Below are positions 9,521-44,529 of a DNA stretch of 44,529 bases, in pieces. The position numbers were made by a program, and so were the translations under genes. Under the pieces are notes generated by a model, which saw only the letters and a list, made by a program, of their open reading frames with translations, searched no databases and was not told the origin of the DNA. Each line of letters opens with the position of its first letter. The stretch's first letter is position 1. The stretch is from a virus. Where the stretch lies: IMG/VR virus record IMGVR_UViG_3300022912_000003; one strand, written 5' to 3'.

Positions 9521-9526
9521 AAAAAT

Positions 9527-9557: not shown

Positions 9558-9576
9558 AGCCTAAACGGAGAAAACA

Positions 9577-10300: not shown

Positions 10301-10302
10301 AT

Positions 10303-10946: not shown

Positions 10947-11251
10947 GACGAGCAAAGATAAGGATTGATAATGATATAGCATATCCAGTATTAAACATAC
11001 TGCGAAGGAATGGTGGATTTATCAATAGTGCAGAGATAGAGATGGTACTTAACATGGGTGGAGCAACAGTTAGGGGGTGTATACATTATCTTAGGGAGAG
11101 TGGACATCCTGTTATATCTACAGGCATGGGGTACAAGTACACAACCAACAAGAAAGAAATAAAGAGTTGTATAAAATCATTATTGCAGAGGGCAAGTAAG
11201 ATACAGTGTGCCGCTTATGCTTTAGATGATACATTAGATGCAATGGTATAA
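10943..11251 (+). CDS. winged-helix DNA-binding protein (putative transcription regulator)
   Basis: ..PVLNILRRNGGFINSAEIEMVLNMGGATVRGCIHYLRESGHPVIS.. resembles a wHTH of the HTH_11/BirA-N type. Confidence 0.5.
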   Translation: MRRAKIRIDNDIAYPVLNILRRNGGFINSAEIEMVLNMGGATVRGCIHYLRESGHPVISTGMGYKYTTNKKEIKSCIKSLLQRASKIQCAAYALDDTLDAMV

Positions 11252-11261
11252 GGAGAATAAC

Positions 11262-11498
11262 ATGAGTTTAGAATATGAATTATTAAAGAAGTCTATATCT
11301 AAAATTGACTTATCAAGATACGAAAAACAAATTCAAGAAGCTGTTGATAGTTATTTTAAGAATGGCGGGTTTAGTGATGAAATTTCAGAAGCCTTAAATG
11401 AATCAGAAATCGGGTGGAAGATTGCAGATGCTGTTGCTGATGCAGTGGAGAAGGCAGTAGATCAGTTTCATTTCGAGATAACAGTGTCCCCTAAATGA
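11262..11498 (+). CDS. hypothetical acidic protein (78 aa)
   Basis: AAGGAG RBS before the ATG at 11262 (internal to track ORF 11238-11498). Confidence 0.6.
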   Translation: MSLEYELLKKSISKIDLSRYEKQIQEAVDSYFKNGGFSDEISEALNESEIGWKIADAVADAVEKAVDQFHFEITVSPK

Positions 11499-11635
11499 AA
11501 AAACGTGAAACAATGAAAAAGAAAATCAACAGGCTTGCCAAGGAGTATTCTAATAATGGTAAGTGTTGGTGGGTGTATACTCATATAAAGGCTTATGCAT
11601 CTTATCACCATAACGATGAAAAGGAGGACAAGTAA
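11495..11635 (+). CDS. hypothetical basic protein (46 aa, putative)
   Basis: ATGA overlap upstream and TAATG overlap downstream. MKKRETMKKKINRLAKEY... Confidence 0.4.
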   Translation: MKKRETMKKKINRLAKEYSNNGKCWWVYTHIKAYASYHHNDEKEDK

Positions 11636-11946
11636 TGTATTGTGGTGAATGTGGAATACACGTAGTTTCTAATGCTATGTCAGGTTATTGTACAAGCTGT
11701 TTGCAAGATATGGTAAATAACAATCCATTAACCACTCAGGTTGGTGGGGATTGGTATAAGAAATTAAAGATACAACCTATCGACTATGTTATGTCCAATG
11801 ATTTAAATTACTTACAAGGAGCAGTAGTAAAGTATATCACAAGGCATAAAGCTAAGGGTGGTAAGGAGGACTTACTAAAAGCAATTCATTGTACAGAATT
11901 ACTAATTAAATATGAATATGGAGACGACGATGAGCAACAGAAGTGA
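11635..11946 (+). CDS. DUF3310-like protein with N-terminal zinc ribbon
   Basis: CGECG..CTSC followed by IQPIDYV...YLQGAVVKYITRHKAKGGKEDLLKAIHC, the pattern of the phage DUF3310 family. Confidence 0.6.
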   Translation: MYCGECGIHVVSNAMSGYCTSCLQDMVNNNPLTTQVGGDWYKKLKIQPIDYVMSNDLNYLQGAVVKYITRHKAKGGKEDLLKAIHCTELLIKYEYGDDDEQQK

Positions 11947-12202
11947 CAGGTTAAAGAATCTATCAAAGCTACCAGTATCAATGATGCTGTTAAATTCACT
12001 ATTCTCTTTAGTGGAATCTATGGCTGATAGACCTAATGAGGAAGAAAATATATTCTCTGACTTGGGTATAGTAGAATTACGTGTTGCGTTTAGAACACTA
12101 TCACATCTTGGGTATGCTACTGTAATAGAGAAAGAGGAAGAAGATCATATCTATTCATTAGACTACGCAACATTCTTTGCTGATATAGGAGGTATAGCAT
12201 GA
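11930..12202 (+). CDS. hypothetical protein (90 aa)
   Basis: GGAG 6 nt upstream of the ATG at 11930 (internal to track ORF 11912-12202). Confidence 0.55.
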   Translation: MSNRSDRLKNLSKLPVSMMLLNSLFSLVESMADRPNEEENIFSDLGIVELRVAFRTLSHLGYATVIEKEEEDHIYSLDYATFFADIGGIA

Positions 12203-12291
12203 TAGCCAGCTTTTTTATAGGTGTAGCTGTAGGACTTGGAGCGTTAATTATTATAATTGAGATTATAGAATGGAGTGATGAAAATGCTTAA
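12199..12291 (+). CDS. 30-aa single-pass membrane peptide (putative)
   Basis: ATGA overlap with the upstream stop. MIASFFIGVAVGLGALIIIIEIIEWSDENA. Confidence 0.35.
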   Translation: MIASFFIGVAVGLGALIIIIEIIEWSDENA

Positions 12292-12634
12292 AGCAGTTAA
12301 AGATTATTATACAATTGGAACTATAGGTAGGATGATAGATGAATGGACAGCTAATAGGTACATAGATTTAAAGGCTATACCTGACAAAGAATCTTATTGG
12401 TTCGAAGTTATGTGGCATCCAGAAGTAATGTGTGATCTGTATAAATGTTCTGATTGTCCATTAAAAGCCTTGTGTTCTCCTGATGTATTAGAGGCACTAA
12501 AGGAAAGTAAGATATTTGGCAAGGTATACTTTGCCTTCATTCAAGATAGACCAGAAAGGTATAGGGATTTAGTAGATGAACTACTTGGGAAACTTATGGA
12601 GTTACATGATAAATACAAGAGCGAAGGGCAATAG
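12284..12634 (+). CDS. hypothetical protein (116 aa)
   Basis: GGAG 8 nt upstream of the ATG at 12284. Alternative in-frame starts at 12275 (GTG) and 12278. Confidence 0.6.
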   Translation: MLKAVKDYYTIGTIGRMIDEWTANRYIDLKAIPDKESYWFEVMWHPEVMCDLYKCSDCPLKALCSPDVLEALKESKIFGKVYFAFIQDRPERYRDLVDELLGKLMELHDKYKSEGQ

Positions 12635-12956
12635 GATACAATTAAAGTTTATAGAACATTTGAAGGAGGAAGGGTGGCTTGTTGGTAAGGTGGAACAGAC
12701 AGGTAAGTTCGTTAAAGAGAAGGACTTGTTCGGACTATTTGATCTTGCCGGAATAAATCCATCACGAATCCTTCTTGCTCAGGTGACGTGCAATAGACCA
12801 CACACTCATGAGGATTATATAAAGTTTAGCAAGACTTATCCAGTACGCAAACTTGTTATAATGCAGGGTGTGTGGTATGACCACAAGGGTTGGAAGATAT
12901 TTACTTACTACAATGGTAGAAAGTATGTTAGAGATTTAAGGAAAGGAAAGCAATGA
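12606..12956 (+). CDS. PD-(D/E)xK nuclease, Holliday-junction-resolvase (Hjc)-like
   Basis: RAKGNRIQLKFIEHLKEEGWLVGKVEQ...KDLFGLFDLAG...ILLAQVT follows the G..E...L...G..V ... D ... (E/Q)VK layout of Hjc-type resolvases. GGAG RBS before 12606. Confidence 0.5.
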   Translation: MINTRAKGNRIQLKFIEHLKEEGWLVGKVEQTGKFVKEKDLFGLFDLAGINPSRILLAQVTCNRPHTHEDYIKFSKTYPVRKLVIMQGVWYDHKGWKIFTYYNGRKYVRDLRKGKQ

Positions 12957-13138
12957 AGATAACCTTGAATGAGTCAAAGGGGGTTATGGTATTAAAGCCC
13001 GAAACAGACATGGATTATTTTACACTTGGATGTCTTGGGGCTAAGATAACTCATACTCTTGTTACAGATAATGACGGGGTAAACCACATAACAATAAAAA
13101 AACAAGATATTTTAAATACCATACTAACTAAATTATAA
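12953..13138 (+). CDS. hypothetical protein (61 aa)
   Basis: ATGA overlap with the upstream stop. Confidence 0.55.
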   Translation: MKITLNESKGVMVLKPETDMDYFTLGCLGAKITHTLVTDNDGVNHITIKKQDILNTILTKL

Positions 13139-13147
13139 GGAGAATAA

Positions 13148-13543
13148 ATGTCAATATTATATGACGATATATTAGAACCAATAAAGGATATTATTATCGA
13201 AGTAGTCGGTGATACTATTCCAGTTGGTGTACTTGGGGTTCACGATGACCCTACAACAATGGGTAGAAACTGGATAACTATAAGGTTGTTCGGAGATGTA
13301 GAAATACACGAATCATCTGCCAACTCAATACAAAGGAGGTATCCAATTGAGGTACGTTACAACTATCGTGACGAAACTGATGACGCTACTGAGAAAGCCA
13401 TTACGGATTTCTTGGAGAAGATCGACACCAAGCTCTGGCAGGAACGAAACCAATCAAACGGTGGGTTCTATGGCGGAGAGTCGAAGATCGAATATGGGGA
13501 TAGACGGATACTCACCGATGTCATACACACAGAGGTCTTCTAA
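13148..13543 (+). CDS. hypothetical protein (131 aa)
   Basis: AAGGAG RBS. No function assignable. Confidence 0.6.
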   Translation: MSILYDDILEPIKDIIIEVVGDTIPVGVLGVHDDPTTMGRNWITIRLFGDVEIHESSANSIQRRYPIEVRYNYRDETDDATEKAITDFLEKIDTKLWQERNQSNGGFYGGESKIEYGDRRILTDVIHTEVF

Positions 13544-13544
13544 T

Positions 13545-14057
13545 ATGCCTAATCCAGCACGGGAGTGGAGTTATAATATGCCAACAACAGATTGGTTTAC
13601 TGGAATAGCAGATAGTCCTACAATAAAACCAGTAAGACGGTGCTTGAATTGTGGTGAGTTCTGTAATGATGATGGTACTGTTATAATGGATAGACAAGAG
13701 TTTCATAGACTTAGAACAATGGTAGGGTTGCGTGGAGATAAATATACATCAAAGATATTTGGAGCGTGTTGTTTCAGTCAGTGGACAGATGATGTTGGAT
13801 GCCATACAACCTATCGTTCACCTGAACGCAAGTTTGACAACAACTTGTACGAAGGGTTATTCCACATGGAGTTTCCACGATGTAACACTCCTGATGAACT
13901 TGCTATGTTGAGATCATATAGACAGGGAAGCATGCTGGACTTTGAAGTAGCACATGATGTAGGTGAAGATGATGCACCAAGACGTGAACCATCACCAACA
14001 AGGAGATTCTATACTACTACACCCACAAGTACAACTACAACGAGCGGGACGTGGTAA
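13545..14057 (+). CDS. hypothetical Cys-containing protein with Thr-rich C-terminus (170 aa)
   Basis: ATG 1 nt after the upstream TAA. The track ORF 13347-14057 N-terminal extension overlaps the previous gene and was trimmed. Confidence 0.55.
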   Translation: MPNPAREWSYNMPTTDWFTGIADSPTIKPVRRCLNCGEFCNDDGTVIMDRQEFHRLRTMVGLRGDKYTSKIFGACCFSQWTDDVGCHTTYRSPERKFDNNLYEGLFHMEFPRCNTPDELAMLRSYRQGSMLDFEVAHDVGEDDAPRREPSPTRRFYTTTPTSTTTTSGTW

Positions 14058-14302
14058 AATCTAAATCAGATAAACGAATAGTATTTAACTGTCAGATGTG
14101 TGTTTTAGTAGGGATGATTATAGCTATTGTTATTGTCACATTGGCTATACCAATTGTTGATGAACCTTCATGCCCCAAATACATATATGAAGTCAAGGGT
14201 GATGGATCTGCCCTTGCAAAAGATTGCAATGAACATGAATGGAGAGGGATACCTCCACGATATGGAGTCATCCGAGTATGGCAGGTTGGTGAGGTGGGAT
14301 GA
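14051..14302 (+). CDS. small membrane protein (1 TM)
   Basis: GTG start overlapping the upstream end. MCVLVGMIIAIVIVTLAIPIV hydrophobic helix. ATGA overlap with the downstream methylase. Confidence 0.45.
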   Translation: MVKSKSDKRIVFNCQMCVLVGMIIAIVIVTLAIPIVDEPSCPKYIYEVKGDGSALAKDCNEHEWRGIPPRYGVIRVWQVGEVG

Positions 14303-14883
14303 GATTCGACGCGACCTGTGAGGACAACATGACCCTAATGGCTCGATACCCCGACAACTACTTCGATTTAGCTATAGTCGATCCGCCGTATGGGGATGGG
14401 ACTATAAAAGGCCGAAACACCACTTTAGATAAAAATTGGAATTTCAAGCCAGACAAAGAGTATTTTACAGAATTATTCAGAGTGAGTAAAAATCAAATCG
14501 TTTGGGGCGGGAATTATTTTGATTTACCTATCAATAAACATTTTGTGATTTGGGATAAAAAACAGTTCATGAACAACCAGTTTGCGAGATGCGAATATGC
14601 TTGGTCGAGTTTAAGATATAATGCAAATATTTTCCAATGCTTCTACAATTCAGACCACCGAATGCATCCCACTCAAAAACCCGTAAAATTATATCAATGG
14701 CTCTTACAAAACTATGCCAAACCAGGTGATAAAATACTCGATACACATTTAGGTTCAATGTCTATCGCTATTGCCTGTCATAAAGAGGGCTTTGATCTTA
14801 CTGGTTGTGAGATTGACCGAGAATATTACGATGCAGGCATGAAAAGACTTGAACAGGCTATGGCACAGCAAGAATTATTTTAA
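14299..14883 (+). CDS. DNA methyltransferase, N6-adenine/N4-cytosine type (DPPY motif), orphan
   Basis: LAIVDPPYGDG (motif IV) near the N-terminus and ILDTHLGSMSIAIAC (AdoMet motif I-like) near the C-terminus, a beta-class order. No adjacent endonuclease. Confidence 0.8.
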   Translation: MRFDATCEDNMTLMARYPDNYFDLAIVDPPYGDGTIKGRNTTLDKNWNFKPDKEYFTELFRVSKNQIVWGGNYFDLPINKHFVIWDKKQFMNNQFARCEYAWSSLRYNANIFQCFYNSDHRMHPTQKPVKLYQWLLQNYAKPGDKILDTHLGSMSIAIACHKEGFDLTGCEIDREYYDAGMKRLEQAMAQQELF

Positions 14884-14933
14884 TACTACAACGACACCTG
14901 TTGATGAAACGCTTAACTTAGAAAAGGGATAAC

Positions 14934-15557
14934 ATGAAGATATTAAACTTATACGCAGGTATAGGTGGTAACAGGTTGTTATGGGGAAACGGAATAGATG
15001 AAGTAACCGCAATTGAATATGACCAAGAGATAGCAAATGCATATAAAAGTGCGTTCCCATCTGATGAAGTATTAGTTTGTGATGCCCATGAGTTCTTACT
15101 TGACAACTACAGGGACTATGATTTTATATGGGCATCACCACCATGCCCAAGTCATTCAGATATAAGAAGATGTGGAGTCCACGCAGGACAGTATGGTGCT
15201 ATATATCCTGACATGGGGTTGTATCAGGAGATAATCTTACTACAGAACTTCGCACGTACAGATACAAGATGGGTTGTTGAGAATGTAAAGCCATACTATC
15301 CACCATTAATACCACCATCACATCATTTGCATAGACATTTATATTGGAGTAACTTTCATATTGATAACTTTAATGTCACTGATAGTAGAAAACATAACGA
15401 TATAGTTGGTTCTTCAACGGTTTATGGTTTTAATATTACAGATACACCAATAAGAAATAAAAGAAAGGTATTAAGAAACATGGTTGACCCTGAACTTGGC
15501 AACCATATATTTAATTGTGCTCTTGACAGTATAACAGAACAAGGAGAATTATTTTAA
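14934..15557 (+). CDS. C5-cytosine DNA methyltransferase-like protein, unusually short (207 aa)
   Basis: LNLYAGIGGN (motif I), WASPPCPSHS (PC motif IV), VVENV (motif VI), C-terminal ..LGNHI.. (motif X-like). Very little room for a target-recognition domain. Confidence 0.6.
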   Translation: MKILNLYAGIGGNRLLWGNGIDEVTAIEYDQEIANAYKSAFPSDEVLVCDAHEFLLDNYRDYDFIWASPPCPSHSDIRRCGVHAGQYGAIYPDMGLYQEIILLQNFARTDTRWVVENVKPYYPPLIPPSHHLHRHLYWSNFHIDNFNVTDSRKHNDIVGSSTVYGFNITDTPIRNKRKVLRNMVDPELGNHIFNCALDSITEQGELF

Positions 15558-15796
15558 TGGATATTGAAGAAATGATAAATGGTTGGAATACTAAGTATGA
15601 TGAGGGTTTTACACCTCAAGAGCTTGCAGATGTGGCTATTTCTTACGGTTTAGACCCCAAACTGCTTAGGGAGACCATAGGGGTGGTAACAGCGATGGTT
15701 AAGGACAATGTGATACTTACTTATCATTGTGACGTAATAGTTGCTGTACGGTGCTGTTTAGAAGGTCGAAAACCTCATTGGACTGAGTGGGATTAG
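15557..15796 (+). CDS. hypothetical protein (79 aa)
   Basis: TAATG overlap with the upstream stop. Confidence 0.55.
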   Translation: MDIEEMINGWNTKYDEGFTPQELADVAISYGLDPKLLRETIGVVTAMVKDNVILTYHCDVIVAVRCCLEGRKPHWTEWD

Positions 15797-15799
15797 AAT

Positions 15800-16030
15800 A
15801 TGAGTAATACACTATCATTAAGCGGAGAAACATATCACTATTTAGGTTGGACAATAGAAACCATGAGATTTATGGATGAAGATGACCATACTAATAGTCA
15901 TACTCGTGTTGTTGCATCAAATGGTGGTGACACGGTGTATAAGATTAGATGTGAAAATCACGGATTAGACAACATGGATTTAGCCAGAGCAATCTTTATT
16001 ATAAAGAAAGCAATAAGACGGGGTGTTTAA
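15800..16030 (+). CDS. hypothetical protein (76 aa), last gene of the + arm
   Basis: ORF with the stop TAA at 16028-16030 abutting the stop of the convergent minus-strand gene. Confidence 0.55.
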   Translation: MSNTLSLSGETYHYLGWTIETMRFMDEDDHTNSHTRVVASNGGDTVYKIRCENHGLDNMDLARAIFIIKKAIRRGV

Positions 16031-19521: not shown

Positions 19522-22463
19522 TAAGCTATCCCTATATCTGCACCACGTCTAATGGCACGTTTAATTTTTGGTATTGCATCGAACTCAATAAAGTCGTCAC
19601 TAAGCACATTACCACTGAATGTGATATGAACGTCACCTCCGCTCAAAGAACGGCTATCTGGTCTATCTATGGGCGTTATTCGTACATGTTCTCGCCCTTT
19701 CTCACCTACAGTTATGTTCTCAGCACCACTTGTAGTAAATTCACCACCCTTAGCAAACTTCTGTGGCTTAGGTTGAGCGAGTACAAGAGCTGTTGAGAAA
19801 GCCGCTTGCAATAGTGCCGCTTTATTTGCTGGGATGGCAAACAATGTGCCAGTTATAGCTGGATTCTTTGTAAGAGTCACAGCAAGATTCATAGCTATTT
19901 CGGCTATAGACATTGCTTGTTTGGCTTTATGTAGTTTAACCAGAGATTTGTATGCTTCATCTTTTATCTTTTGCTCTTCTGCTTTCTTTCTCTTATCAGA
20001 TGATCTTTGAAATGCCCCTGTCGCTCTTAAAGCATCGAGCTCTCTATTCATATTATTCTGAATAGATGCCTCTTTCCTTGCATGTACTTGGTCTATTATG
20101 GCGATTACTCCATCGCCCCATGTTTTGTATAACTCAAGGCTTTGCTCTAAAGTAGATTGTTCGTGAGTTAAGTCTATATTTCCCAACATACTTTTATGTA
20201 ACTTATCATTTGCATCTATTAATTTTTTTATCTCTGCCGGTCTAAGGTCAGCCTCAAGTTTTTCAATATCTCTTTTTGTATTTATCCATCGTATGTTTTC
20301 TTTTAATTGAGAGAGTATTCTTTTATCTGTGTTATTGTACAGGCTTAATTCTAATTGCTTGACAGATATCCCCTGCCTTATGGCATTAGCTTTATCTCTT
20401 TGTCCTTGTATAAACGAGGTTATATCTTTTTCTTCTGCGTCCTTAAACCTCTGATACATTATCTCGTACTGTTTTACAATCTCTGCTGGTGTTAACCCAG
20501 AGTCTTCAAGGGTCTTATTTAACTTTATTAATTTTAATCTATATTTTTCTGTGATGGCATCTGCACCAGAGAGACTGCCAAGCAGTGCTCTATCTAATGC
20601 AACTTGAAAATCTAATAGAGACTCGGCTGTGATGGCTAATTCCTCGTTTAATCTCTCCTGTTCTGCCCTCCACTCTTTAGTAAAGTCTTTTGCCTTAGCA
20701 GTAGTATTTATTATATCTATTAATCCATCACCATATCTATTGATCCATTTGACAGCCTGAACGAGCCCCTCAGCAAATATAATCCCTGATGCAACCCTAA
20801 AGGCTCTTGTTGCCTTTACTGCTGCCCATGTAGTGGCAGTGTATACTTTTAATCCCTCTTTTAAGACGGCTACTCTTATGGCTGCAATTTTTGTTGCTGC
20901 AGATAAGTACCCCATGGCGAGAACAAGAGACCCTATCGCAAGAGTGTACCCCTGTAGTCTATCGGTATCAATTATTGTGGTAGCAAACTTTGTAAGTAAC
21001 CTTGTAGTTGGAAGAAGGATGTCCCCAAGCTCTGTCATAGTGGTTATGAGATTCTCATTGAAAGACCTAAGTACATTTTCAAACTCTTCAAGAGTTCTTG
21101 CCCTATCACCTTGGGCTTTAGTAGTTGATTTAAGTATTAAATCCAACCTTAGTTGAATTTTCTGTTGTGCTGTGAGCTCACCATTAGTTAAGCGAATCCC
21201 TTGTCTTAGAGCCTCAGTCTTTAACATAGTATCAGTTATGATAATGTTATATTTCCTAATGGCTTCATGATTACCAACAAGGGCAGAGGTGAAGTTATTC
21301 ATCACCTGTGTATCAGTGACTCCGGGAAAGAAGGAAGCAACGTCTAATGATAATTGAACCATTGTCTTGGACATTGATATAGCTCTTTTTTCAGCAAATC
21401 CCATAGAATCAAATAATGAAAAGATGTTTGCTGTCATCTCAAAGGTTGAGTTTTTAGATATGTTCATGCTCTTGGCTAACTTAGTAGCCCAGACCTGCAT
21501 ACCCTTTGAATTATCCTCAAACAGAACATTCATTCTGTTTACAGTCTCATTAAATTCAGATGACTTTGTGATAAATTTAAATAAGGTTCTGGTCATTACT
21601 GTAACAGCAAATGATGCAAGTAATATTTTTGACCTTAGTGTGGCAAAGGCATTATTTAATAACCTGCTACTTCCAAGCCCAAGCACATTCGCTTTGTGTT
21701 GTTGAGCCATCTCTGTATTCAAACCCCTGACCTGTATTCGTAACTGCCTGTAAGCTACCTCGCTACCCTTCATGGCAGCCTTGACAAGTTTCTGATCTAT
21801 AGCTGTATTTTTTAATGTAGTGTTATGGACTTTTAATTGGACATTTAGTTCTCTAACCCTTGCACTATTTTTTAACCATTCAAGTCTTGCTTTCTTTGCT
21901 GCAATATTAGCTTTATTGGTTGTCGCTGTAGCTTCTTTGTCAGCCTGTATTTTTTCACGTATGCGTCTTTTATTTTCTTTTACAGCAAGAGTAAACTTAC
22001 TCATAGCAGCTTCGTTACCCTTTAAGGCTTTATTGTATCCTGTTAATGGAACAAGGGCTGCCCCAACACTCGCATTTAATGCCAGCATCTCAGCCTTCAT
22101 TTCACGAACTTTAATCGTTGCTTTCTTCTGGAGGGTAATCGCTTTTTCTTTTGTCGCCGCCGATCGTTTCTCTTTGATAAGAACAATATCCATAGCCCCG
22201 GCAAGCTCTTTCACATCATTTGTTAATGCTTCATTAGCTCTCCGGAGTAGTTCTGTAAATTTTTCAGCAGTAATATTTGCTTTAGTGAGTTCTTTGGTTT
22301 TTGTAAATTGTACAGCTAAGGCAACGGCAAGATTTTCTCCTGCCTTCTCTTGCTCTTTTGTTGTTATAATAAGAGGTCTAAAGACTGAGGCAAGCTCCTT
22401 AATATCTACCGTAAGAACCTTTATGTCTTTCCCGAAACTTAATACTGCATTATCACTTGGCAT
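19521..22463 (-). CDS. tail tape measure protein (980 aa)
   Basis: Long Ala/Lys/Glu/Leu-rich coiled-coil sequence with central hydrophobic segments (GYTLAIGSLVLAMGYLSAATKIAAI). Located after two small chaperone-sized genes. Confidence 0.85.
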   Translation of the reverse strand: MPSDNAVLSFGKDIKVLTVDIKELASVFRPLIITTKEQEKAGENLAVALAVQFTKTKELTKANITAEKFTELLRRANEALTNDVKELAGAMDIVLIKEKRSAATKEKAITLQKKATIKVREMKAEMLALNASVGAALVPLTGYNKALKGNEAAMSKFTLAVKENKRRIREKIQADKEATATTNKANIAAKKARLEWLKNSARVRELNVQLKVHNTTLKNTAIDQKLVKAAMKGSEVAYRQLRIQVRGLNTEMAQQHKANVLGLGSSRLLNNAFATLRSKILLASFAVTVMTRTLFKFITKSSEFNETVNRMNVLFEDNSKGMQVWATKLAKSMNISKNSTFEMTANIFSLFDSMGFAEKRAISMSKTMVQLSLDVASFFPGVTDTQVMNNFTSALVGNHEAIRKYNIIITDTMLKTEALRQGIRLTNGELTAQQKIQLRLDLILKSTTKAQGDRARTLEEFENVLRSFNENLITTMTELGDILLPTTRLLTKFATTIIDTDRLQGYTLAIGSLVLAMGYLSAATKIAAIRVAVLKEGLKVYTATTWAAVKATRAFRVASGIIFAEGLVQAVKWINRYGDGLIDIINTTAKAKDFTKEWRAEQERLNEELAITAESLLDFQVALDRALLGSLSGADAITEKYRLKLIKLNKTLEDSGLTPAEIVKQYEIMYQRFKDAEEKDITSFIQGQRDKANAIRQGISVKQLELSLYNNTDKRILSQLKENIRWINTKRDIEKLEADLRPAEIKKLIDANDKLHKSMLGNIDLTHEQSTLEQSLELYKTWGDGVIAIIDQVHARKEASIQNNMNRELDALRATGAFQRSSDKRKKAEEQKIKDEAYKSLVKLHKAKQAMSIAEIAMNLAVTLTKNPAITGTLFAIPANKAALLQAAFSTALVLAQPKPQKFAKGGEFTTSGAENITVGEKGREHVRITPIDRPDSRSLSGGDVHITFSGNVLSDDFIEFDAIPKIKRAIRRGADIGIA

Positions 22464-35515: not shown

Positions 35516-36301
35516 TTACTGACAAAGTGACATGACGTTTAGATTCTCCGTCTTATCAGCACAGTTTCTACGTGATCTTACCCACCCACCGCATTCACAT
35601 CTGTACATCTGATATGGGAATACTTTGGTGTGATAGAACTCAACATCTTCTGTCAAGTTGGCAGAACCACAAATGTTACAATGCTTCTCTCCGTCATGTT
35701 CAAATAGAGCTACGTTAGGATGTGTTGACATCCAAGGTCTTAGTTCTATGTAAACCTTTTCAAGTAGGTCAACGTCATTGATGCAATAGTTTATCATATC
35801 AGTAAACGCCACCATATCTTCTTTCATACATTTAGCCCATAGCTCAAAGCCTTCATGTTTTGTTTTCCTACCCAACCCAAGGAACTCTCCAAGTGCATCA
35901 AGCGAGTTATGTGCGAACTTAAATCTACGTTTAGCAATCTCAAGTGTATCTATGATTGCAAATGGTCTTGGCGGTGGCATGTGGTGGAATGCAAACCTTG
36001 TATTCAAAACTGCAATGTCAAACTTCCTTGCATTGTGAGCAACGATCATATCAGCTTCCTCTAACCATTTCCATACAGTCTCTACAACATAGCTATCATC
36101 TTCCGGGTTATTGACATAGTCATCCCCTTCCGGCAGTGACACAGACATAGTCTCGTCGCTCCCAAGCCATTTTGCACAGACACATAAAACATAACCATCC
36201 CTTTCAAGCATAACATTTGGGATGTTAGCCTTCCAAACATTCCATACGAATGCTTCCTTTGGTGCTGTTTCTATGTCAAGTATTAGTATCTTTGCGTTCA
36301 T
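35516..36301 (-). CDS. DnaQ/PolB-type 3'-5' exonuclease (RNase H-like fold, DEDDy) with C-terminal zinc ribbon
   Basis: ExoI ILDIETAP, ExoII VAHNARKFDIAVL, ExoIII YCINDVDLL. The C-terminus has CNICG...CECGG. Confidence 0.7.
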   Translation of the reverse strand: MNAKILILDIETAPKEAFVWNVWKANIPNVMLERDGYVLCVCAKWLGSDETMSVSLPEGDDYVNNPEDDSYVVETVWKWLEEADMIVAHNARKFDIAVLNTRFAFHHMPPPRPFAIIDTLEIAKRRFKFAHNSLDALGEFLGLGRKTKHEGFELWAKCMKEDMVAFTDMINYCINDVDLLEKVYIELRPWMSTHPNVALFEHDGEKHCNICGSANLTEDVEFYHTKVFPYQMYRCECGGWVRSRRNCADKTENLNVMSLCQ

Positions 36302-38234: not shown

Positions 38235-39539
38235 TTATCCCCTACTTGAAGTCCCTACGAAAACTCTCTTTATCGGCTCAATGTTGGTAAAGAAATATCT
38301 TACCATATCCATGCCATGTTCGTTTATTCCGTCCTTTAGTGGTGTGTCCATGTGTGATTTCTCTGGATAACGATACCCCTCAAAGTCCTGTATAATTGGT
38401 GCACAATGAACTTTGTCAACGTGGATACGTCTAATACCTTCTGCATTACAGAGGATACTTCTTACGTGGTTTACACTATTTTTAATGTCAACTGCTTGTG
38501 AGTCAAGTGTGTAGTAAATATCTTTTCCAAGTATCTTACTCAGAACTTGGTAGTCACTCATACCTGCCGCACCTTGCATAGCCCTACCTGCTGGATCACC
38601 GTAGTATCTCACCACCTTGTAAGGCTTCTCTTTAATCATATTTCCTAATTCTGGTGTAGTGATATTCTTTTCATGTGCTATACAATCAATGAGGTAGAAG
38701 TGTTTGACACCACCCTCATAAGCTATCTGCCACCACCCAACAGCAGGCATTCTGTACCCAACATCCATCGCACAATATGTTGGCTTGTTTGGATCATAAG
38801 GATAAGTTCCTGTGTCCGTCTCTCTTTTAAATTTGTAGACCATACCAGCGAAAGAAACAAACTTAGCACAGTACTCTTGACTCCACTCTTCTTCCGACAT
38901 AGTCGCTCTGGCTTCTTTTAAATCCTCATCTTCGTATCCATCAGGAAACATGATGTTGTTCTGCCAAGTTGGACTGTTGTAACTAAACCAGTTATTGTTT
39001 ACTTCTGGAAGAATGTATCTATCATAGACCCAATTGAATCCTTCTGGCGTAGTGATAAACAAAACATCTCCTTTTCGATCTGAAACAGTAGCACGTAGAT
39101 ATTTGTTGTACAGGTCTTCCTTGATCTTAGCAGCTTCATCAATCACGAGTAAGTCAAGCCCCTCACCAACTAAGTTGTCAGGGTTGGTAGCTGACTTCGC
39201 CTCAAACGTACTGCCCCATGCAAAGTTAATGAACTGATCCTTCTCTGACTTACGAAGAATCGGCATCTGATGTTTAGTAACACAGTCAGCATAGACTTCC
39301 CTGAATACTTTATCAGCAAGAGAATATGTTGGAGCGACAATCCACGCACGCTTATCTTCCTGCAATATTACTGATTCAATCTCTTTTGCAGCAGCAACGG
39401 ACTTTCCCCATCTACGACCACAGATAAACACAACGAATCTTTTAGTCCCTGTACCAAAGTGTAGAACCTTCTGACCATCATGAGGCTCATAACCAAAGCC
39501 CTTGAATATCTTTTTCTTATACTCAATTGATGTCTTCAT
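38235..39539 (-). CDS. terL: terminase large subunit
   Basis: Walker A VFICGRRWGKS, Walker B LDLLVIDEAAKI, C-terminal nuclease-like region (AMDVGY.., YGDPAG). Confidence 0.9.
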   Translation of the reverse strand: MKTSIEYKKKIFKGFGYEPHDGQKVLHFGTGTKRFVVFICGRRWGKSVAAAKEIESVILQEDKRAWIVAPTYSLADKVFREVYADCVTKHQMPILRKSEKDQFINFAWGSTFEAKSATNPDNLVGEGLDLLVIDEAAKIKEDLYNKYLRATVSDRKGDVLFITTPEGFNWVYDRYILPEVNNNWFSYNSPTWQNNIMFPDGYEDEDLKEARATMSEEEWSQEYCAKFVSFAGMVYKFKRETDTGTYPYDPNKPTYCAMDVGYRMPAVGWWQIAYEGGVKHFYLIDCIAHEKNITTPELGNMIKEKPYKVVRYYGDPAGRAMQGAAGMSDYQVLSKILGKDIYYTLDSQAVDIKNSVNHVRSILCNAEGIRRIHVDKVHCAPIIQDFEGYRYPEKSHMDTPLKDGINEHGMDMVRYFFTNIEPIKRVFVGTSSRG

Positions 39540-39788: not shown

Positions 39789-40466
39789 TTATATATTACT
39801 ATTAAAAGAGGAATCCCCAAAGACTTCTTTCTCTTTTTTTTCTAATCCTTTTAACCATGCTCTCCTTTTCTCTGCCGTAGGCTTTCCCGCTCCCATAAGC
39901 GGATAATCAACAGCATTCGCACGTTTACGAAGTTCATAGTATTGGTTCTGTTCTGATGATTCACCTCGTTGTTTTACCCTTTCTTTAGCTTTAACCTTCT
40001 CTTCTTTAATCCTATCAGTAATGATATCATCAACATTGACTCGCTCCATAGCTTCTTCAAACTCAGCATCAATAACATCATCAGTGTCTTCAATAACAAC
40101 TTCTGACATAGCTTCTTGAAACTTCTGATATGGACTATCAATTCTAATGGTGAGGGTATTACTAATCTTTTCATGCAGTTCAAGGACTAACTTCGCAGCA
40201 GCTACAGACCCACTGATAGCTTCATCCATCATGGATTCTACTACGTGAGTCAGTTTATGGCTTGCTGTATCCATATACATATCCCAAATCATTGACTTAT
40301 ACAATGGGTTCTTTAGTACCTTGCTCACAAGAGCAGGAGCACAACCAAAAGACTTTGCAATCTCTTTATAAGTTAGTTGAGGGTTATTCGTATAAATTTT
40401 AATTATTCCACACTCTGTTAAGCTCATGTTCCCACTTAACGCAAGTGCCTTCATATCTTTGTTCAC
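39789..40466 (-). CDS. terS: terminase small subunit (HTH-containing). Start set at GTG 40466; the longest ORF reaches ATG 40493
   Basis: HTH LTYKEIAKSFGCAPALVSKVLKN. Position upstream of terL. AAAGGA lies 6 nt upstream of GTG 40466, whereas ATG 40493 has no RBS and lies inside the predicted tRNA. Confidence 0.65.
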   Translation of the reverse strand: MNKDMKALALSGNMSLTECGIIKIYTNNPQLTYKEIAKSFGCAPALVSKVLKNPLYKSMIWDMYMDTASHKLTHVVESMMDEAISGSVAAAKLVLELHEKISNTLTIRIDSPYQKFQEAMSEVVIEDTDDVIDAEFEEAMERVNVDDIITDRIKEEKVKAKERVKQRGESSEQNQYYELRKRANAVDYPLMGAGKPTAEKRRAWLKGLEKKEKEVFGDSSFNSNI

Positions 40467-40484
40467 ATGATTTCCTTTATTTTG

Positions 40485-40556
40485 AGCCAACATAAGGAGT
40501 CGAACCCTAATCTTCTGGGTACAAACCAGTGGTAATAGCCATTATACTACATTGGC
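40485..40556 (-). tRNA. tRNA-Thr(UGU)-like gene, 72 nt, no encoded CCA
   Basis: Hand-folded cloverleaf: acceptor GCCAATG/TGTTGGC (2 G-U), U8, A14, G18G19, A21, anticodon loop TT-TGT-AC, 4-nt variable loop, T arm TAGGG-TTCGACT-CCTTA with G53, T54, T55, C56, A58, C61. Confidence 0.65.
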
Positions 40557-40742
40557 AGTAGATGTAATATACGACATGATACCCTATACAAGTCAAATTA
40601 ACAATATTATTCAAATAATCAGGGGTTGTACTGGTCAAATTAGAATTAATAATTTTGGATGAGGAGGCTATGCCTACTACTGCCAAATTGTCATACCCCC
40701 CTACCCCTTCATAACCTGTTGGTTTTATTGGACTTATGAGAA

Positions 40743-41002
40743 TGGCATGGTTATTGCCAACATAAATGTAACAGTTTGTAACAACATGACCTGCCAGGAT
40801 GTCATATAATTGTGGCATGATATTTGTTGAGTAAAAGTGTGCCGATATGGCATAGTTTCAGCCCAATTCTATGGCATGATATTTGCCTACTGACATTTTG
40901 TACTGAATTAATGGCATGAATTTTTGGCACAATTTTTGCCCTACTGACAAATTGTCTTGGCATGGTTGTTGCTATGTAAATATCACTTGGCATGATGTTT
41001 GC
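40743..41002 (+). repeat. Array of TGGCAY-N5-TTGC (sigma-54 -24/-12-like) motifs, all in + orientation
   Basis: Full matches at 40743-40757, 40872-40886, 40925-40939 (TGGCAC-aattt-TTGC), 40958-40972 and 40988-41002. Degenerate copies at 40813, 40848 and 40912. Confidence 0.8.
40767..40786 (+). repeat. Phased direct repeat TGTAACAGTT-TGTAACAACA (10-bp period), left copy
   Basis: Read directly. Related pair at 41009-41028. Confidence 0.7.
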
Positions 41003-41008
41003 TGTAAG

Positions 41009-41028
41009 TTGTAACAACTTGTAACAGT
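41009..41028 (+). repeat. Phased direct repeat TTGTAACAAC-TTGTAACAGT (10-bp period), right copy
   Basis: Read directly. Same two half-sites as 40767-40786 but in swapped order. Confidence 0.7.
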
Positions 41029-41129
41029 TTAAATAGACCTTGTGAGATTGTTGGAAATGTCTTACATTAAGGCATGGGAAAAACCGATAAAATAACACCA
41101 ACAAAAACAGTCATAGGAGTGCGTTTAAA

Positions 41130-41381
41130 ATGAAAATTACATATTGGAAAATTCAAAACCAAATAGCTGACGAAACATATAGTATCCGTGCAAGAACCAA
41201 GGAGGATGCTATTGAGCAACTGATAGGAAATGATTTGATAGGTGATTATCGTGACCCTGAAACGGGAATCATAACAGTAGAAAAAATTACTATTGAATAT
41301 ATAGATGCTATAGATTTAATTAGGGCATGTTATTCCACGGGTAACGAAACCCCTGTAAAAAAAATTAGATTGAATATATAG
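41130..41381 (+). CDS. hypothetical early protein (83 aa), first gene of the + arm
   Basis: TAGGAG RBS. Confidence 0.6.
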   Translation: MKITYWKIQNQIADETYSIRARTKEDAIEQLIGNDLIGDYRDPETGIITVEKITIEYIDAIDLIRACYSTGNETPVKKIRLNI

Positions 41382-41383
41382 AT

Positions 41384-41491
41384 ATGAATAAAAAAACATC
41401 TCATAAATCAATATGTAAAATGATTTTAACACTATCAATAGTGACAAGTTTAATAATCATATTTGTTCAGGGAATTACACATATAAGATAA
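41384..41491 (+). CDS. 35-aa single-pass membrane peptide (putative)
   Basis: MNKKTSHKSICKMILTLSIVTSLIIIFVQGITHIR. Confidence 0.35.
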   Translation: MNKKTSHKSICKMILTLSIVTSLIIIFVQGITHIR

Positions 41492-41574
41492 CTTCATTAA
41501 ACGAGTGATTTATATAAATGGTTTATATGAATCCCCAATTAACAAAATCAATAAATTCATGAAAGGAATTTATA

Positions 41575-42291
41575 ATGTTAAAGAATCCAAAATACAGGGA
41601 AAAGGAAACTGTACTATCATTTAGACCTAATAAGGATGGAAAATTCCCTATTAAATCTTATCATGTCCCAAAAGTGCAAAAGATGTTAAAAGATGGGATA
41701 ATTTTCAATCACGGCAAACAGAATGAAATCAGAAAACAGAATAATCTGCCGTTGAATGACTACCCTTCAAAAGCTGAAATGGATTTCATGATAGATTGCG
41801 ATTTTAGAAGGCAATATACAGTGTCTTTGCCACTTGGTGTCTTAATGATGTCAAATACTTCACAGATGTTTTATGAGATCTGTGAGGAACTACTTGAAAG
41901 CTGTTTAAATGGTGAAATTGGAAAAGCACCATATAACAGGAATGAAAATGAATTCGTGCAAATGAAAACCTCGATACAAGTTAGCAAAGTTTTGAAAAAG
42001 AATTTAACAACTGTGTCAAGAAAATCAGATGCCCGATTTTTCAATGAGATAACAAAAGCGATTCATTCATTTGCTGATTTTTGCAAAAACCTGGAAACAC
42101 CAACCAATTCAAAAATCGATGGAATAAATGATCTGATTAAAATATCAATGACATCCATCATGACAGAGATTGAGGCACTTTATGAGATTTTCAAAGGCGA
42201 TAAAAAAGAAAAAGCAGAATTGCCTATTGTGAATAATGTCGAAGATGCCTCGCAGGATGCCCCCCCTGTCACAAGAGCAAAAAAAAGATAA
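41575..42291 (+). CDS. hypothetical early protein (238 aa)
   Basis: AAAGGA RBS. Followed by a strong terminator. Confidence 0.65.
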   Translation: MLKNPKYREKETVLSFRPNKDGKFPIKSYHVPKVQKMLKDGIIFNHGKQNEIRKQNNLPLNDYPSKAEMDFMIDCDFRRQYTVSLPLGVLMMSNTSQMFYEICEELLESCLNGEIGKAPYNRNENEFVQMKTSIQVSKVLKKNLTTVSRKSDARFFNEITKAIHSFADFCKNLETPTNSKIDGINDLIKISMTSIMTEIEALYEIFKGDKKEKAELPIVNNVEDASQDAPPVTRAKKR

Positions 42292-42308
42292 TTAATCTTA
42301 ATTAACTA

Positions 42309-42348
42309 ATATCTCCCCGAATTAATTTTTGGGGAGATATTTATTTTT
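42309..42348 (+). terminator. Rho-independent terminator
   Basis: Perfect 10-bp stem atatctcccc/ggggagatat, 12-nt loop, followed by ttattttt. Confidence 0.85.
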
Positions 42349-42398
42349 AGAAAATTTCACAAATTTTTAAGGTGCTGAATCCTATCACCTGTACAAAA

Positions 42399-42434
42399 CA
42401 TAGGATTATAAATTGATACATAGGATTATAAATT
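42399..42434 (+). repeat. Tandem duplication cataggattataaatt-gata-cataggattataaatt immediately upstream of an ATG
   Basis: Read directly. A variant of the junction element recurring at 42772, 43010 and 43102. Confidence 0.85.
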
Positions 42435-42587
42435 ATGTCACAGAAACCACAGAAAGAATATTTCTATAATATCTATACAGGTAAAATGATTTGCCGTGAG
42501 TATAATTCTGTAGGAAAGGCTATAGTTAGCGAAGTTACAGATAAAGACAAAGTATTAGAAATATTAATGGGATTTAATTCTAATTAG
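42435..42587 (+). CDS. hypothetical protein (50 aa, MSQ start)
   Basis: MSQKPQKEYFYNIYTGKMICREYNSV... The start context is shared with the following genes. Confidence 0.45.
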   Translation: MSQKPQKEYFYNIYTGKMICREYNSVGKAIVSEVTDKDKVLEILMGFNSN

Positions 42588-42596
42588 GAGTATATA

Positions 42597-42791
42597 ATGT
42601 CACAGGAACAAACTGTAAAAATCACAGGTAATGGAGATGTATTTTTCTTTGATTATAATTTCAAAACTGGTTATGAACATAGTGAGAACTATATAAAAAG
42701 GAATAAGGGTAAATTTATAATGAAGGTATATTATAAAAACCGTGGTGGCACAGGAAATCTATGGACTCACATAAAAACAATAGGAGTATAA
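42597..42791 (+). CDS. hypothetical protein (64 aa, MSQ start)
   Basis: TAGGAGTATATA-ATGTCACAGGA start context. Confidence 0.6.
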   Translation: MSQEQTVKITGNGDVFFFDYNFKTGYEHSENYIKRNKGKFIMKVYYKNRGGTGNLWTHIKTIGV

Positions 42792-42794
42792 ATT

Positions 42795-43031
42795 ATGTCA
42801 TTGGATAAAATAATACGAATAGACGAAGGTGGTGTGTGGGATGAAAACTTTTTTGATATACGGATGGATGTGGAATTAGGCAAGTGGCAAGGACACTGTC
42901 GTCACGTACAAAATGATAAACTAAAATATGTTGTTGTGGCTATAAATGAAGGTGGCTATAATAATACAGGTGTATGTGGTGAGTGTGTATCTGAGGCAAT
43001 TATAAAACTAAACAATAAGGATTATAAATGA
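42795..43031 (+). CDS. hypothetical protein (78 aa, MSL start)
   Basis: AATAGGAGTATAAATT-ATGTCA start context. Confidence 0.6.
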   Translation: MSLDKIIRIDEGGVWDENFFDIRMDVELGKWQGHCRHVQNDKLKYVVVAINEGGYNNTGVCGECVSEAIIKLNNKDYK

Positions 43032-43124
43032 AACTCAGTAAAAAGAAAATATTAGCTATATTGTGTGATGCTGAAAAGGTATTTAATGAGACATCCTTCA
43101 CTAAAAACAATAGGAGTATAAATT

Positions 43125-43595
43125 ATGTCACAGGATAAATTTATTAGACAGAGTGAACTCAGTCGTAAATATGATGAGGTGAGTATAAATGCTAAAAAAG
43201 AATTTATAAAAGAAATCGAAGGTGTAAAATTTAACTGTAATTTTGATTGTAACGGTTGTGCTAAAACAAAGGATTTAAAAGTGGGTGATCGTGTCAGTAT
43301 ATATAGCAAAGAAAAAGGTTGTTGTACAGATTGCTATAATGCGCTTGGCTATATTAGACACCAACCTACTGACGAAGAGTATAAAATATATACACGATTG
43401 TTTAAAAACAATAATCAGGATGGATTTTGGACACCAAACGGATGTTCATTGCCTCGTGAGTTACGAAGTGTAATTTGTCTATCATATAGTTGTTATGATT
43501 CACAGGTGAGTAGAGAGGATAGACTAAAACTATGTGATGCACGAGATAAATTTATGAGAGCAAAAAGCGGTCAATGGAGAAGGGATAGCAAATGA
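43125..43595 (+). CDS. Cys-rich putative metal-binding protein (156 aa, MSQ start)
   Basis: CNFDCNGC, GCCTDC, GCSLPRELRSVICLSYSC. Faint resemblance to the CxxCxxCC (YkgJ-like) family. Confidence 0.55.
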   Translation: MSQDKFIRQSELSRKYDEVSINAKKEFIKEIEGVKFNCNFDCNGCAKTKDLKVGDRVSIYSKEKGCCTDCYNALGYIRHQPTDEEYKIYTRLFKNNNQDGFWTPNGCSLPRELRSVICLSYSCYDSQVSREDRLKLCDARDKFMRAKSGQWRRDSK

Positions 43596-43780
43596 AAGTT
43601 GAATTTATAATATATGACCCTAAAACATATAAATGGGTTAAAGATTTTTTATACTTGTGTCATGCATACAGGTATTTAATGAGACATCCTTCACTAAAAA
43701 TGTGTAAGGTCAGTAATAAAAAAAATCACAGCTTATTAGTAAAAATACTAAAAGCAAGTTTCACAGGGGGTAGAAAATGA
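43592..43780 (+). CDS. hypothetical protein (62 aa)
   Basis: ATGA overlap with the upstream stop. Contains one copy of a 31-nt repeat. Confidence 0.5.
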   Translation: MKVEFIIYDPKTYKWVKDFLYLCHAYRYLMRHPSLKMCKVSNKKNHSLLVKILKASFTGGRK

Positions 43781-44022
43781 AAGTTAGATTATTTGTAGCA
43801 GTAGAGTATGTAAATAAACCAACTGCAAAAGAAAATGATACAAATATAATTGGTGATGTGGAGACAAGTTGTGAGGAAGCATATAATAGCCTGTGCTATA
43901 AAAAAGACTGTTGTGGTTTTATGAACCCAATTATAGACAATATCGTTATTTATGAATTGGGCAGGAAAACAACTTATCGTGTAAATCCTGCCCCACATTT
44001 TTTTGAGGTACGAAACAGATAA
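43777..44022 (+). CDS. hypothetical protein (81 aa)
   Basis: ATGA overlap with the upstream stop. Confidence 0.55.
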   Translation: MKVRLFVAVEYVNKPTAKENDTNIIGDVETSCEEAYNSLCYKKDCCGFMNPIIDNIVIYELGRKTTYRVNPAPHFFEVRNR

Positions 44023-44061
44023 CAATAAGAGGTGATAATGAGAAAAGTATAATAATATCAT

Positions 44062-44078
44062 GTGCCCCTTCGGGGCAC
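44062..44078 (+). promoter_or_regulatory. Short GC-rich hairpin gtgcccc-ttc-ggggcac in an AT-rich spacer
   Basis: 7-bp perfect stem. No U-tract downstream. Confidence 0.4.
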
Positions 44079-44107
44079 TCTCACATCACTATAAATTGGA
44101 GCATAGA

Positions 44108-44152
44108 ATGAAAGTTGATACAGTAAAAAAAGACCGGAGGAATAAAAAGTGA
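44108..44152 (+). CDS. 14-aa basic leader peptide ORF (putative) coupled to the next gene
   Basis: TGGAG RBS. MKVDTVKKDRRNKK. Its TGA overlaps the GTG start of 44149 (GTGA). Confidence 0.25.
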   Translation: MKVDTVKKDRRNKK

Positions 44153-44310
44153 GTTGTTGTGATGGGTGGGAATACTCCGATAAAGAGGTAAATGGAGTAT
44201 GTAAGGATTGTGGTATGCCAACAGTAGGCGGACACGCACAAGAAGGGTGTCATTATAGCCCCGTAGTGTGTGAAACCTGTGGATGGTCGCCTTGTGACCA
44301 AAGTTGTTAA
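44149..44310 (+). CDS. 53-aa Cys-rich (9 Cys) small protein, GTG start
   Basis: GGAGG 8 nt upstream of the GTG. (M)SCCDGWEYSDKEVNGVCKDCGMPTVGGHAQEGCHYSPVVCETCGWSPCDQSC. Absent from the track because it is under 60 aa. Confidence 0.55.
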   Translation: MSCCDGWEYSDKEVNGVCKDCGMPTVGGHAQEGCHYSPVVCETCGWSPCDQSC

Positions 44311-44311
44311 T

Positions 44312-44529
44312 ATGAAATTATTAGCAACGTATGGAACATTACGCAAGGGTCACTATAATAATTATTTATTGAGAAATAGTGAACTTCTTGGAGAGAATAT
44401 TCTACCTAATTTTACTATGTTCAGGCTTAGCGGAAACTATCCTGCAATAGTCCCAAGTATCAATCAATTAATAACTGTTGAAGTATATCGTATCACAGAG
44501 AAAGTCTACAAGAAGATAGAACAGTTAGA
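44312..44529 (+). CDS. gamma-glutamylcyclotransferase-like (AIG2/GGACT family) protein, N-terminal part; continues at 128-245 after circular closure
   Basis: MKLLATYGTLRKGHYNNYLL.. is the hallmark YGTL+.G N-terminus of GGCT-like enzymes. The ORF is open to the window end and in frame through the repeat. Confidence 0.8.
   Translation, partial: MKLLATYGTLRKGHYNNYLLRNSELLGENILPNFTMFRLSGNYPAIVPSINQLITVEVYRITEKVYKKIEQL
44403..44529. repeat. Terminal direct repeat copy 2, identical to 1-127
   Basis: See 1-127. Confidence 0.97.

Follow-up and report, generated by a model that had tools for sequence, protein, structure and literature searches.

Tandem sigma-54-type promoter elements at the head of the early genes of a marine phage, and similar arrays in other uncultured phages

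The window analyzed here is the whole of IMG/VR virus record IMGVR_UViG_3300022912_000003 (44,529 nt), a complete phage genome from a circular assembly; because positions 1-127 are identical to 44403-44529 (a k=127 signature), the real genome is approximately 44,402 bp (~44.4 kb) long. Its genes lie in two arms of opposite orientation. The plus-strand arm (1-16030 and 41130-44529) carries the early and replication genes, including DnaB (8195-9520), two methylases, and an amidoligase/glutamine amidotransferase (GATase) cassette, and the minus-strand arm (16031-40493) carries the structural genes, including TerL (38235-39539), a capsid gene, and a 1304-aa tape-measure-like open reading frame (ORF). 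The divergent arms meet in a 573-nt spacer (40557-41129) between tRNA-Thr(TGT) and the first early ORF. Within 260 nt of this spacer, between the terS-like gene and the early genes, lie five exact matches to TGGCAY-N5-TTGC, all on the plus strand. The consensus of bacterial promoters used by sigma-54 (RpoN) is TGGCAC-N5-TTGC(W), with GG and GC ten bases apart, and such promoters require an AAA+ enhancer-binding activator. GG and GC are exactly ten bases apart in the five exact matches as well, and four of the five also carry a G after TGGCAY. These full sites are co-oriented with the early genes, 128-387 nt 5' of the first early ORF at 41130, and are listed here with three poorer copies (scores in bits are from the matrix of bacterial promoters described below).

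40743-40757 (+): sigma-54-type element 1 (TGGCATGGTTATTGC), nearly palindromic (TGGCA-N7-TGCCA); exact match, 15.3 bits, 33rd percentile of real promoters
40813-40827 (+): weak element (TGGCATGATATTTGT), with TTGT for TTGC; 12.8 bits
40848-40862 (+): degenerate copy (TGGCATAGTTTCAGC), -24 half intact, -12 half poor; 4.7 bits
40872-40886 (+): sigma-54-type element 2 (TGGCATGATATTTGC); exact match, 15.6 bits
40912-40926 (+): degenerate copy (TGGCATGAATTTTTG), -24 half only, overlapping the site that starts 13 nt later; 0.2 bits
40925-40939 (+): sigma-54-type element 3 (TGGCACAATTTTTGC); exact match, 15.3 bits
40958-40972 (+): sigma-54-type element 4 (TGGCATGGTTGTTGC), the best site in the genome; exact match, 19.6 bits, 69th percentile of real promoters
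40988-41002 (+): sigma-54-type element 5 (TGGCATGATGTTTGC), the last before the early genes; exact match, 18.3 bits

A first-pass annotation of this DNA had placed full matches at 40743, 40872, 40925, 40958, and 40988, and all five proved to be exact, on the plus strand, and directed toward the early genes. The three degenerate copies that it also reported hold up only in part: all three are TGGCAT hexamers and the copy at 40813 is a plausible weak site, but those at 40848 and 40912 are only -24-like halves. Distances between successive sites (70, 35, 24, 40, 13, 33, and 30 nt) are irregular and out of helical phase. Over the whole window, there are six TGGCAY-N5-TTGC matches compared to 0.21 expected, and none of 100 shuffles reached six. 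Using the stricter core TGGCATG-N4-TTG (one mismatch allowed), the array was the sole intergenic occurrence in the window.

Sites were scored with a 19-position weight matrix (PWM) of 108 non-redundant, experimentally supported bacterial sigma-54 promoters (E. coli EcoCyc, the compilation of Barrios et al. 1999, and Desulfomicrobium RegPrecise) that includes no phage sequence. The matrix was rebuilt from S2 Table of PMC12316311, because S3 Table holds protein motifs and not a promoter PWM. No other position on either strand of the window scores as high as the five exact sites (19.6, 18.3, 15.6, 15.3, and 15.3 bits), which fall at the 33rd-69th percentile of the leave-one-out scores of the 108 real promoters. 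Based on 2000 shuffles of the 573-nt spacer, 0.036 plus-strand sites of ≥12 bits and 0.009 of ≥15 bits were expected, whereas six and five, respectively, were found; the likeness to sigma-54 promoters proposed in the first-pass annotation thus stands against shuffled sequence. Outside the spacer, five sites reach ≥12 bits compared to ~2.6 expected genome-wide, which is background. TGGCATG-type -24 elements are present among the bacterial training promoters (E. coli pspG, zraS, yeaG, and ddpX; P. putida xylA; PMC12316311). The sixth exact match of the window (TGGCAC-N5-TTGC, 19837-19851, minus strand, 14.7 bits) lies inside a 980-aa ORF, a count within chance expectation; it is co-oriented with the late genes, ~330 nt 5' of the next gene start.

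To survey other uncultured phages, we scanned IMG/VR for two TGGCATG-N4-TTG sites 10-40 nt apart, for which contig counts are lower bounds. Such pairs were found in at least 120 contigs, versus 11 and 12 contigs for two composition-matched scrambles, which contain CpG and are therefore imperfect matches to the query. The TGGCACG version of the scan also returned at least 120 contigs, mostly different ones. Locus statistics rest on the 120 TGGCATG loci listed, which form 60 clusters at 70% nucleotide identity and range from 22% to 62% GC. When the consensus was weighted by one vote per cluster, positions not specified in the search had the following frequencies: T preceding TGG, 0.68; R following TGGCATG, 0.83; C following TTG, 0.82; and W one position further on, 0.87. 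These flank preferences were unchanged without the two largest clusters. Positions outside the search pattern thus follow the extended sigma-54 consensus, and a phage-private binding site would have no reason to mirror these secondary preferences of sigma-54.

The genomic positions of these arrays were compared. Genes were called to the left and right of 81 arrays, of which 44 occupy a divergent spacer and point toward a same-strand downstream gene (54% vs. 25% expected). About 30 loci, mostly from one 36-member cluster, have a divergent TerL (25-35% identical to that of the window) 0.8-1.6 kb upstream, and the window shares this layout: 1204 nt separate its first site from the TerL start. In the largest array family, a ~130-aa TerS-like protein and an M15 peptidase are encoded between the array and TerL, and neither showed similarity to the 234-aa and 67-aa proteins of the window (phmmer E≤1; profile search E≤10). 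When the 72 window proteins were compared to proteins within 4 kb of the 120 arrays (BLAST and phmmer), only TerL and a methylase recurred, and a shared phage protein was consequently rejected as the binder of the motif.

Arrays are also present in phi29-like linear phages of ~11 kb (with protein-primed PolB, gp16 ATPase, connector, and phi29-type capsid), which carry 2-3 inward-facing sites per terminal inverted repeat, at a distance of 55-170 nt from the end. Four of these contigs (L273, L286, L304, and L319) have terminal inverted repeats of at least ~260 nt at both ends, with sites of 15-21 bits, and the ends of L273 carry Nextera adapter sequence, suggesting that they are true physical ends. 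Contigs of 94-224 kb (jumbo phages among them) contain 10-30 sites of ≥13 bits in 3-5 kb small-ORF regions; over the wider range of 19-224 kb, phage contigs have 10-30 high-scoring sites within a few kb of such regions, occupying one or both strands (L031 1400-4450; L039 6500-9400; L044 200-3900; L062 7000-9950; L072 840-4560). The commonest site spacing in the arrays of other phages is 25-29 nt. Convergent pairs, with a minus-strand site ~20 nt after a plus-strand site, recur every 43-47 nt in some loci (L100 3584-3720, L060 5680-5800, L068, L012, and L019), and a 17-nt tandem repeat (TGGCATGTGATTTGTTT) is present in 7-8 copies in two others (L117 13519-13621; L096 25-130), too close for joint binding. 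DnaA-box-like TTATCCACA repeats were found directly after or within the array in three loci (L028 ~8300-8400, three repeats; L005 ~7040; L109 ~12420). The first-pass annotation had regarded sigma-54 promoters as an unusual option for this phage; such arrays turn out to be common in uncultured phages, at expected early-promoter positions. Among cultured phages, a BLAST search with the array as query returned one single-site match, to a metagenomic Zobellviridae genome, which is uninformative. In a literature search of incomplete coverage, neither stacks of sigma-54 sites in phages nor a DNA array acting as a sigma-54 sponge proved to have been described; the effects of rpoN on Salmonella phages are indirect (PMC8744999).

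The phage itself was independently assembled in several marine metagenomes (e.g., JGI 3300028173 contig Ga0257118_1000397). These assemblies are 99.98-100% identical and therefore provide no informative single-nucleotide polymorphisms for site-level microdiversity. Beyond them, TerL identity falls from 100% straight to 54% in a database of 5.8 billion proteins; nothing closer than ~32% identity was found among cultured phages (DNA and TerL searches), and a peptide-pattern search of IMG/VR for relatives returned only 22%-identical ones. Five relatives with 50-54% identical TerL and 33-34% GC (L129, L131, L133, L135, and L137) have the same divergent layout of terS and early genes.

Near the array, the following flanking genes and repeats were identified.

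39789-40493 (-): TerS-like protein, 234 aa, weak N-terminal winged helix-turn-helix (wHTH) match; upstream of TerL (38235-39539, minus strand)
40484-40556 (-): tRNA-Thr(TGT), first gene of the divergent late arm
40587-40651 (+): two GTCAAATTA-containing 23-nt repeats, 42 nt apart; repeat family D6, two copies, which may be a chance match
40677-40692 (+): relic of the CTACTGACAWWTTGT unit (CTACTGCCAAATTGTC), without a properly spaced -24 element; repeat family D4
40695-40712 (+): C-rich tract ATACCCCCCTACCCCTTC, 31 nt 5' of element 1
40767-40783 (+): TGTAACAGTTTGTAACA, beginning at the predicted start of site 1; repeat family D7, two copies only
40887-40902 (+): CTACTGACATTTTGTA unit directly 3' of the -12 element of site 2, spanning the predicted start; repeat family D4
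40941-40956 (+): CTACTGACAAATTGTC unit directly 3' of the -12 element of site 3, holding the palindrome GACAA-A-TTGTC; repeat family D4
41010-41026 (+): TGTAACAACTTGTAACA, beginning at the predicted start of site 5; repeat family D7
41130-41381 (+): first early ORF, 83 aa, with AGGAG 10 nt 5' of the ATG; no family match

This divergent setting agrees with the first-pass annotation, as do the two copies of a longer unit (CTACTGACAWWTTGT) directly 3' of a -12 element and the relic of that unit. When the C of GC is taken as -12, the predicted start of element 5 would lie near 41014 and give a ~116-nt leader to the ATG at 41130. The predicted early leader (41012-41135) folds at -26.7 kcal/mol (z = -2.8 versus shuffles), with the AGGAG ribosome-binding site paired; the only structured RNA detected in the region by Rfam was tRNA. 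The GTCAAATTA repeats are, as a lead only, the sole candidate enhancer; they precede the first predicted start by ~130 and ~170 nt, the usual distance of an upstream activating sequence of sigma-54 promoters. A C-rich CCCCTCCCCCGCCCC-like tract also precedes the first site by 25-50 nt in the largest array family (25 of 103 arrays, e.g., L004, L005, L021, L022, L036, and L040).

Several features of the surrounding genome were also recorded. As annotated, the terS-like ORF starts at 40493 and so shares 10 nt with the 3' end of tRNA-Thr; its real start may be an ATG at 40454. The region between early ORFs 1 and 2 (41382-41574) is very AT-rich (22-25% GC) and may encode a 35-aa hydrophobic ORF (41385-41492). 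The cassette at 15-5917 comprises a GGACT-like gamma-glutamyl cyclotransferase (15-245), an amidoligase (2358-3890), a class-II glutamine amidotransferase (3892-5091), and an ATP-grasp-like protein (5177-5917), and the amidoligase is also present in the relative L135. A 261-aa protein with RNase_H_2 / RNase_T-like exonuclease domains (35516-36301, minus strand; precomputed Pfam matches of the identical JGI contig) is encoded inside the head-morphogenesis module.

Across the arrays, the motif is constant while flanking phage proteins, genome type, and GC content change, a pattern best explained by a conserved host protein, and sigma-54 is the only known protein with such specificity. The first-pass annotation had left three options open: stacked sigma-54 promoters or a sigma-54 sink, iterons of a replication origin, and sites for a phage protein. 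The sigma-54-like scores, the recurrence in ~60 unrelated clusters, and the non-homologous neighbors favor the first of these with respect to the binder, whereas iterons and phage-protein sites do not fit the motif pattern across phages. Our preferred reading, with a probability of approximately 55%, is that the array is a bank of binding sites for host sigma-54 holoenzyme, most likely tandem early promoters. On the same sequence comparisons, it is likely that sigma-54, alone or as holoenzyme, is the binder when the promoter and sink readings are summed. Firing as promoters, beyond mere binding of sigma-54, is suggested by the position of the array at the head of the early arm, its orientation toward the early genes, the lack of a sigma-70-like promoter, and the inward sites of the phi29-like phages. 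A sigma-70 consensus scan gave no plus-strand candidate between 40581 and 41130, leaving the early arm without a conventional promoter in front.

If the sites are early promoters, host sigma-54 holoenzyme would bind six -24/-12 elements (five good, one weak) that head the early arm and are all directed toward its genes. Transcription would start ~12 nt downstream of each GC. Given that closed complexes of sigma-54 holoenzyme are stable but silent, firing would need an ATP-dependent activator, and because none is recognizable in the phage, a host bacterial enhancer-binding protein (bEBP) or an unrecognized phage factor would have to supply the opening. In the proposed mechanism, a host activator would be used to fire the sites, and the array would lie near the leading end of the packaged DNA. 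The C-rich tract may be a cohesive-end (cos) site and hence a genome end. In that case, a few hundred bases at most would separate the array from the DNA end that faces away from terS, and we infer by analogy with lambda that this end would be packaged last and injected first.

Several results weigh against early promoters of the sigma-54 type. None of the 48 non-structural ORFs matched Sigma54_activat, Sigma54_DBD, Sigma54_CBD, or Sigma54_AID in Pfam, and the sole P-loop protein among them is DnaB. No GAFTGA-type motif is present in any reading frame of the window, in agreement with the earlier observation that no bEBP is visible, and neither Pfam nor PHROGs nor the GAFTGA scan revealed an activator or a sigma-54-like factor encoded in the window. 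Nor was a GAFTGA protein found in ~2 Mb of array-flanking DNA from other phages. The site spacings in the window (13-70 nt) and elsewhere (mode 25-29 nt) are shorter than the polymerase footprint, so neighboring sites cannot all hold holoenzyme; the convergent pairs ~20 nt apart in some families make little promoter sense, and the 17-nt tandem units of some loci fit a promoter bank poorly. A scan of genome contigs for the host returned only phage-like contigs binned in metagenome-assembled genomes and distant prophages; the TerL proteins of the five relatives and of the largest array family had no cultured relative either. Finally, the equivalent spacer of the five TerL 50-54% relatives contains no sigma-54-like site and no repeat array. 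These array-less relatives share a sigma-70-like TTGAAA/TTGAAT-17-TATATT immediately 5' of terS (L131 4137-4165, L135 4021-4049, and L137 4213-4241), and L131 has TAGACA-16-TATAAT on the early strand. Since the relatives have sigma-70-like promoters in its place, the array is a lineage-specific replacement and not ancestral to this phage group. Conservation of the motif in related phages, on which the first-pass annotation had made its proposal depend, is thus missing at this distance, although the motif recurs in ~60 unrelated clusters among the loci listed.

Some of these objections fit better with sites that bind sigma-54 or its holoenzyme without firing, so that replicated genomes would titrate scarce sigma-54 through hundreds of high-affinity sites and shut down host stress, nitrogen, motility, and RNA-repair programs; in one variant, complexes bound at the end of the genome would form a barrier or landing pad. 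Sigma-54 holoenzyme is known to form stable closed complexes without an activator, and none is encoded in the window phage or in the other array-bearing phages examined. A spacing often too tight for simultaneous polymerase binding (mode 25-29 nt; 17-nt tandem units) and the convergent pairs of some families point in the same direction. However, all sites of the window face the early genes, for which no other early promoter is evident, the bias toward a same-strand downstream gene holds across the listed loci, and the inward sites in phi29-like terminal repeats match known early-promoter positions. One infecting genome would also supply only 5-6 sites, restricting any sink effect to late in infection. 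Overall, we consider pure titration unlikely.

A much smaller chance is assigned to packaging sites bound by the neighboring TerS-like wHTH protein, in the manner of the lambda cosB R sites or of pac. The array is ~250 nt from the tRNA/terS/TerL operon and adjoins the possible cos site (the C-rich tract), and in ~30 other listed loci TerL is 0.8-1.6 kb away, all of which would suit such a role. Yet the TerS-like proteins of the largest family have no detectable similarity to that of the window and are found with the same DNA motif, and arrays exist where no TerS acts, in phi29-like terminal repeats and the small-ORF regions of jumbo phages. Moreover, a private TerS site is very unlikely to match at least 11 positions of the sigma-54 consensus by chance, and, unlike cosB, the array is separated from terS by the C-rich tract.

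It is comparably improbable that a phage initiator binds the sites as iterons of a replication origin. In favor of iterons, the sites are co-oriented direct repeats in non-coding DNA where gene orientation and GC skew switch, and in some other phages DnaA-box-like TTATCCACA repeats directly follow the array. Against this, the irregular spacing is not in helical phase, the window spacer has no DnaA box and no sharp AT-rich unwinding element beside the array, no initiator gene is adjacent (the nearest replication gene, DnaB, is ~12 kb away), and a private initiator is at odds with a motif conserved in unrelated phages. Equally little can be said for operators of a repressor/Cro-like phage regulator of the early and late arms, because, even though operators typically lie between divergent transcription units, site 1 is close to a palindrome, and small HTH proteins are encoded (HTH_11 at 10943-11251 and the wHTH of the terS-like ORF), most sites are not palindromic, only TerL and a methylase among the window proteins have relatives near other arrays, and the match to the sigma-54 consensus including its flanks would be a coincidence.

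Returning to the preferred reading of sigma-54 early promoters, its significance lies in the contrast between two kinds of promoter. Sigma-54 promoters are regarded as tightly gated bacterial switches that remain silent without a dedicated ATPase activator, whereas the early promoters of a phage would be expected to be of the sigma-70 type, strong and independent of an activator. If the reading is correct, infection may be coupled to the signaling state of the host (nitrogen limitation, membrane stress, or RNA damage); alternatively, sigma-54 complexes may be opened in a new way, or the sites may act as a sponge that soaks up a host sigma factor. Any of these outcomes would be new phage biology, and the finding of arrays across at least 60 clusters of uncultured phages, both in terminal repeats and where early promoters lie, takes the matter beyond a curiosity of one contig. 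More tentatively, and with some doubt, stacked sigma-54 docking sites could be a widespread, so far undescribed phage device that captures host holoenzyme at the first-entering or early genome end in many lineages, including cos-type siphoviruses, phi29-like podoviruses, and jumbo phages. The captured holoenzyme could launch early transcription with the help of a stress-activated bEBP of the host or a non-canonical activator of the phage, or the capture could sequester sigma-54 and disable the host responses that depend on it.

Known systems resemble the array in different respects. 6S RNA titrates sigma-70 holoenzyme, and non-productive intragenic sigma-54 sites occur in E. coli and Salmonella; in these cases of sigma-factor titration, as might apply to the array, holoenzyme is bound with high affinity but without productive transcription. 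With lambda cosB (R1-R3, gpNu1) and pac, the array shares repeated short sites beside a small-terminase gene and a possible cos, but its motif is common to phages with unrelated TerS or none, and its sites lie beyond the C-rich tract from terS. Compared to the bacterial promoters glnAp2, pspA, and Pu, the array has the same TGGCA(C/T)G-N4-TTGC(A/T) elements, with scores within the range of the 108 real promoters. However, the bacterial promoters are single and have a cognate bEBP and upstream sites, whereas the window has multiple sites, no bEBP gene, and no clear enhancer.

Pseudomonas phage YuA has sigma-54 promoters that showed activity in a promoter trap (Ceyssens et al. 2008; PMC10914365, a re-examination; record annotation). 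YuA is thus similar in carrying host sigma-54-type elements in a virulent siphovirus without its own RNA polymerase. Its three sites are single and dispersed in the late (structural) region, whereas five to six are stacked within 260 nt at the head of the early arm in the window, the rest of the genome being background. Many phages stack early promoters at the end of the genome that is first to enter the cell. The early promoters of T7 (A1/A2/A3), phi29 (C2), and PRD1 are tandem or terminal, of the sigma-70/sigma-A type, and activator-free. The array resembles them in having several co-oriented promoter-type sites within a few hundred bases 5' of the first-expressed genes, and the phi29-like contigs carry inward sigma-54-like sites where phi29 and PRD1 have their early promoters. 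It differs in that sigma-54 sites need an AAA+ activator, and its place at the DNA-entering end is inferred only. By this comparison, the array would be the sigma-54 analogue of T7 A1-A3.

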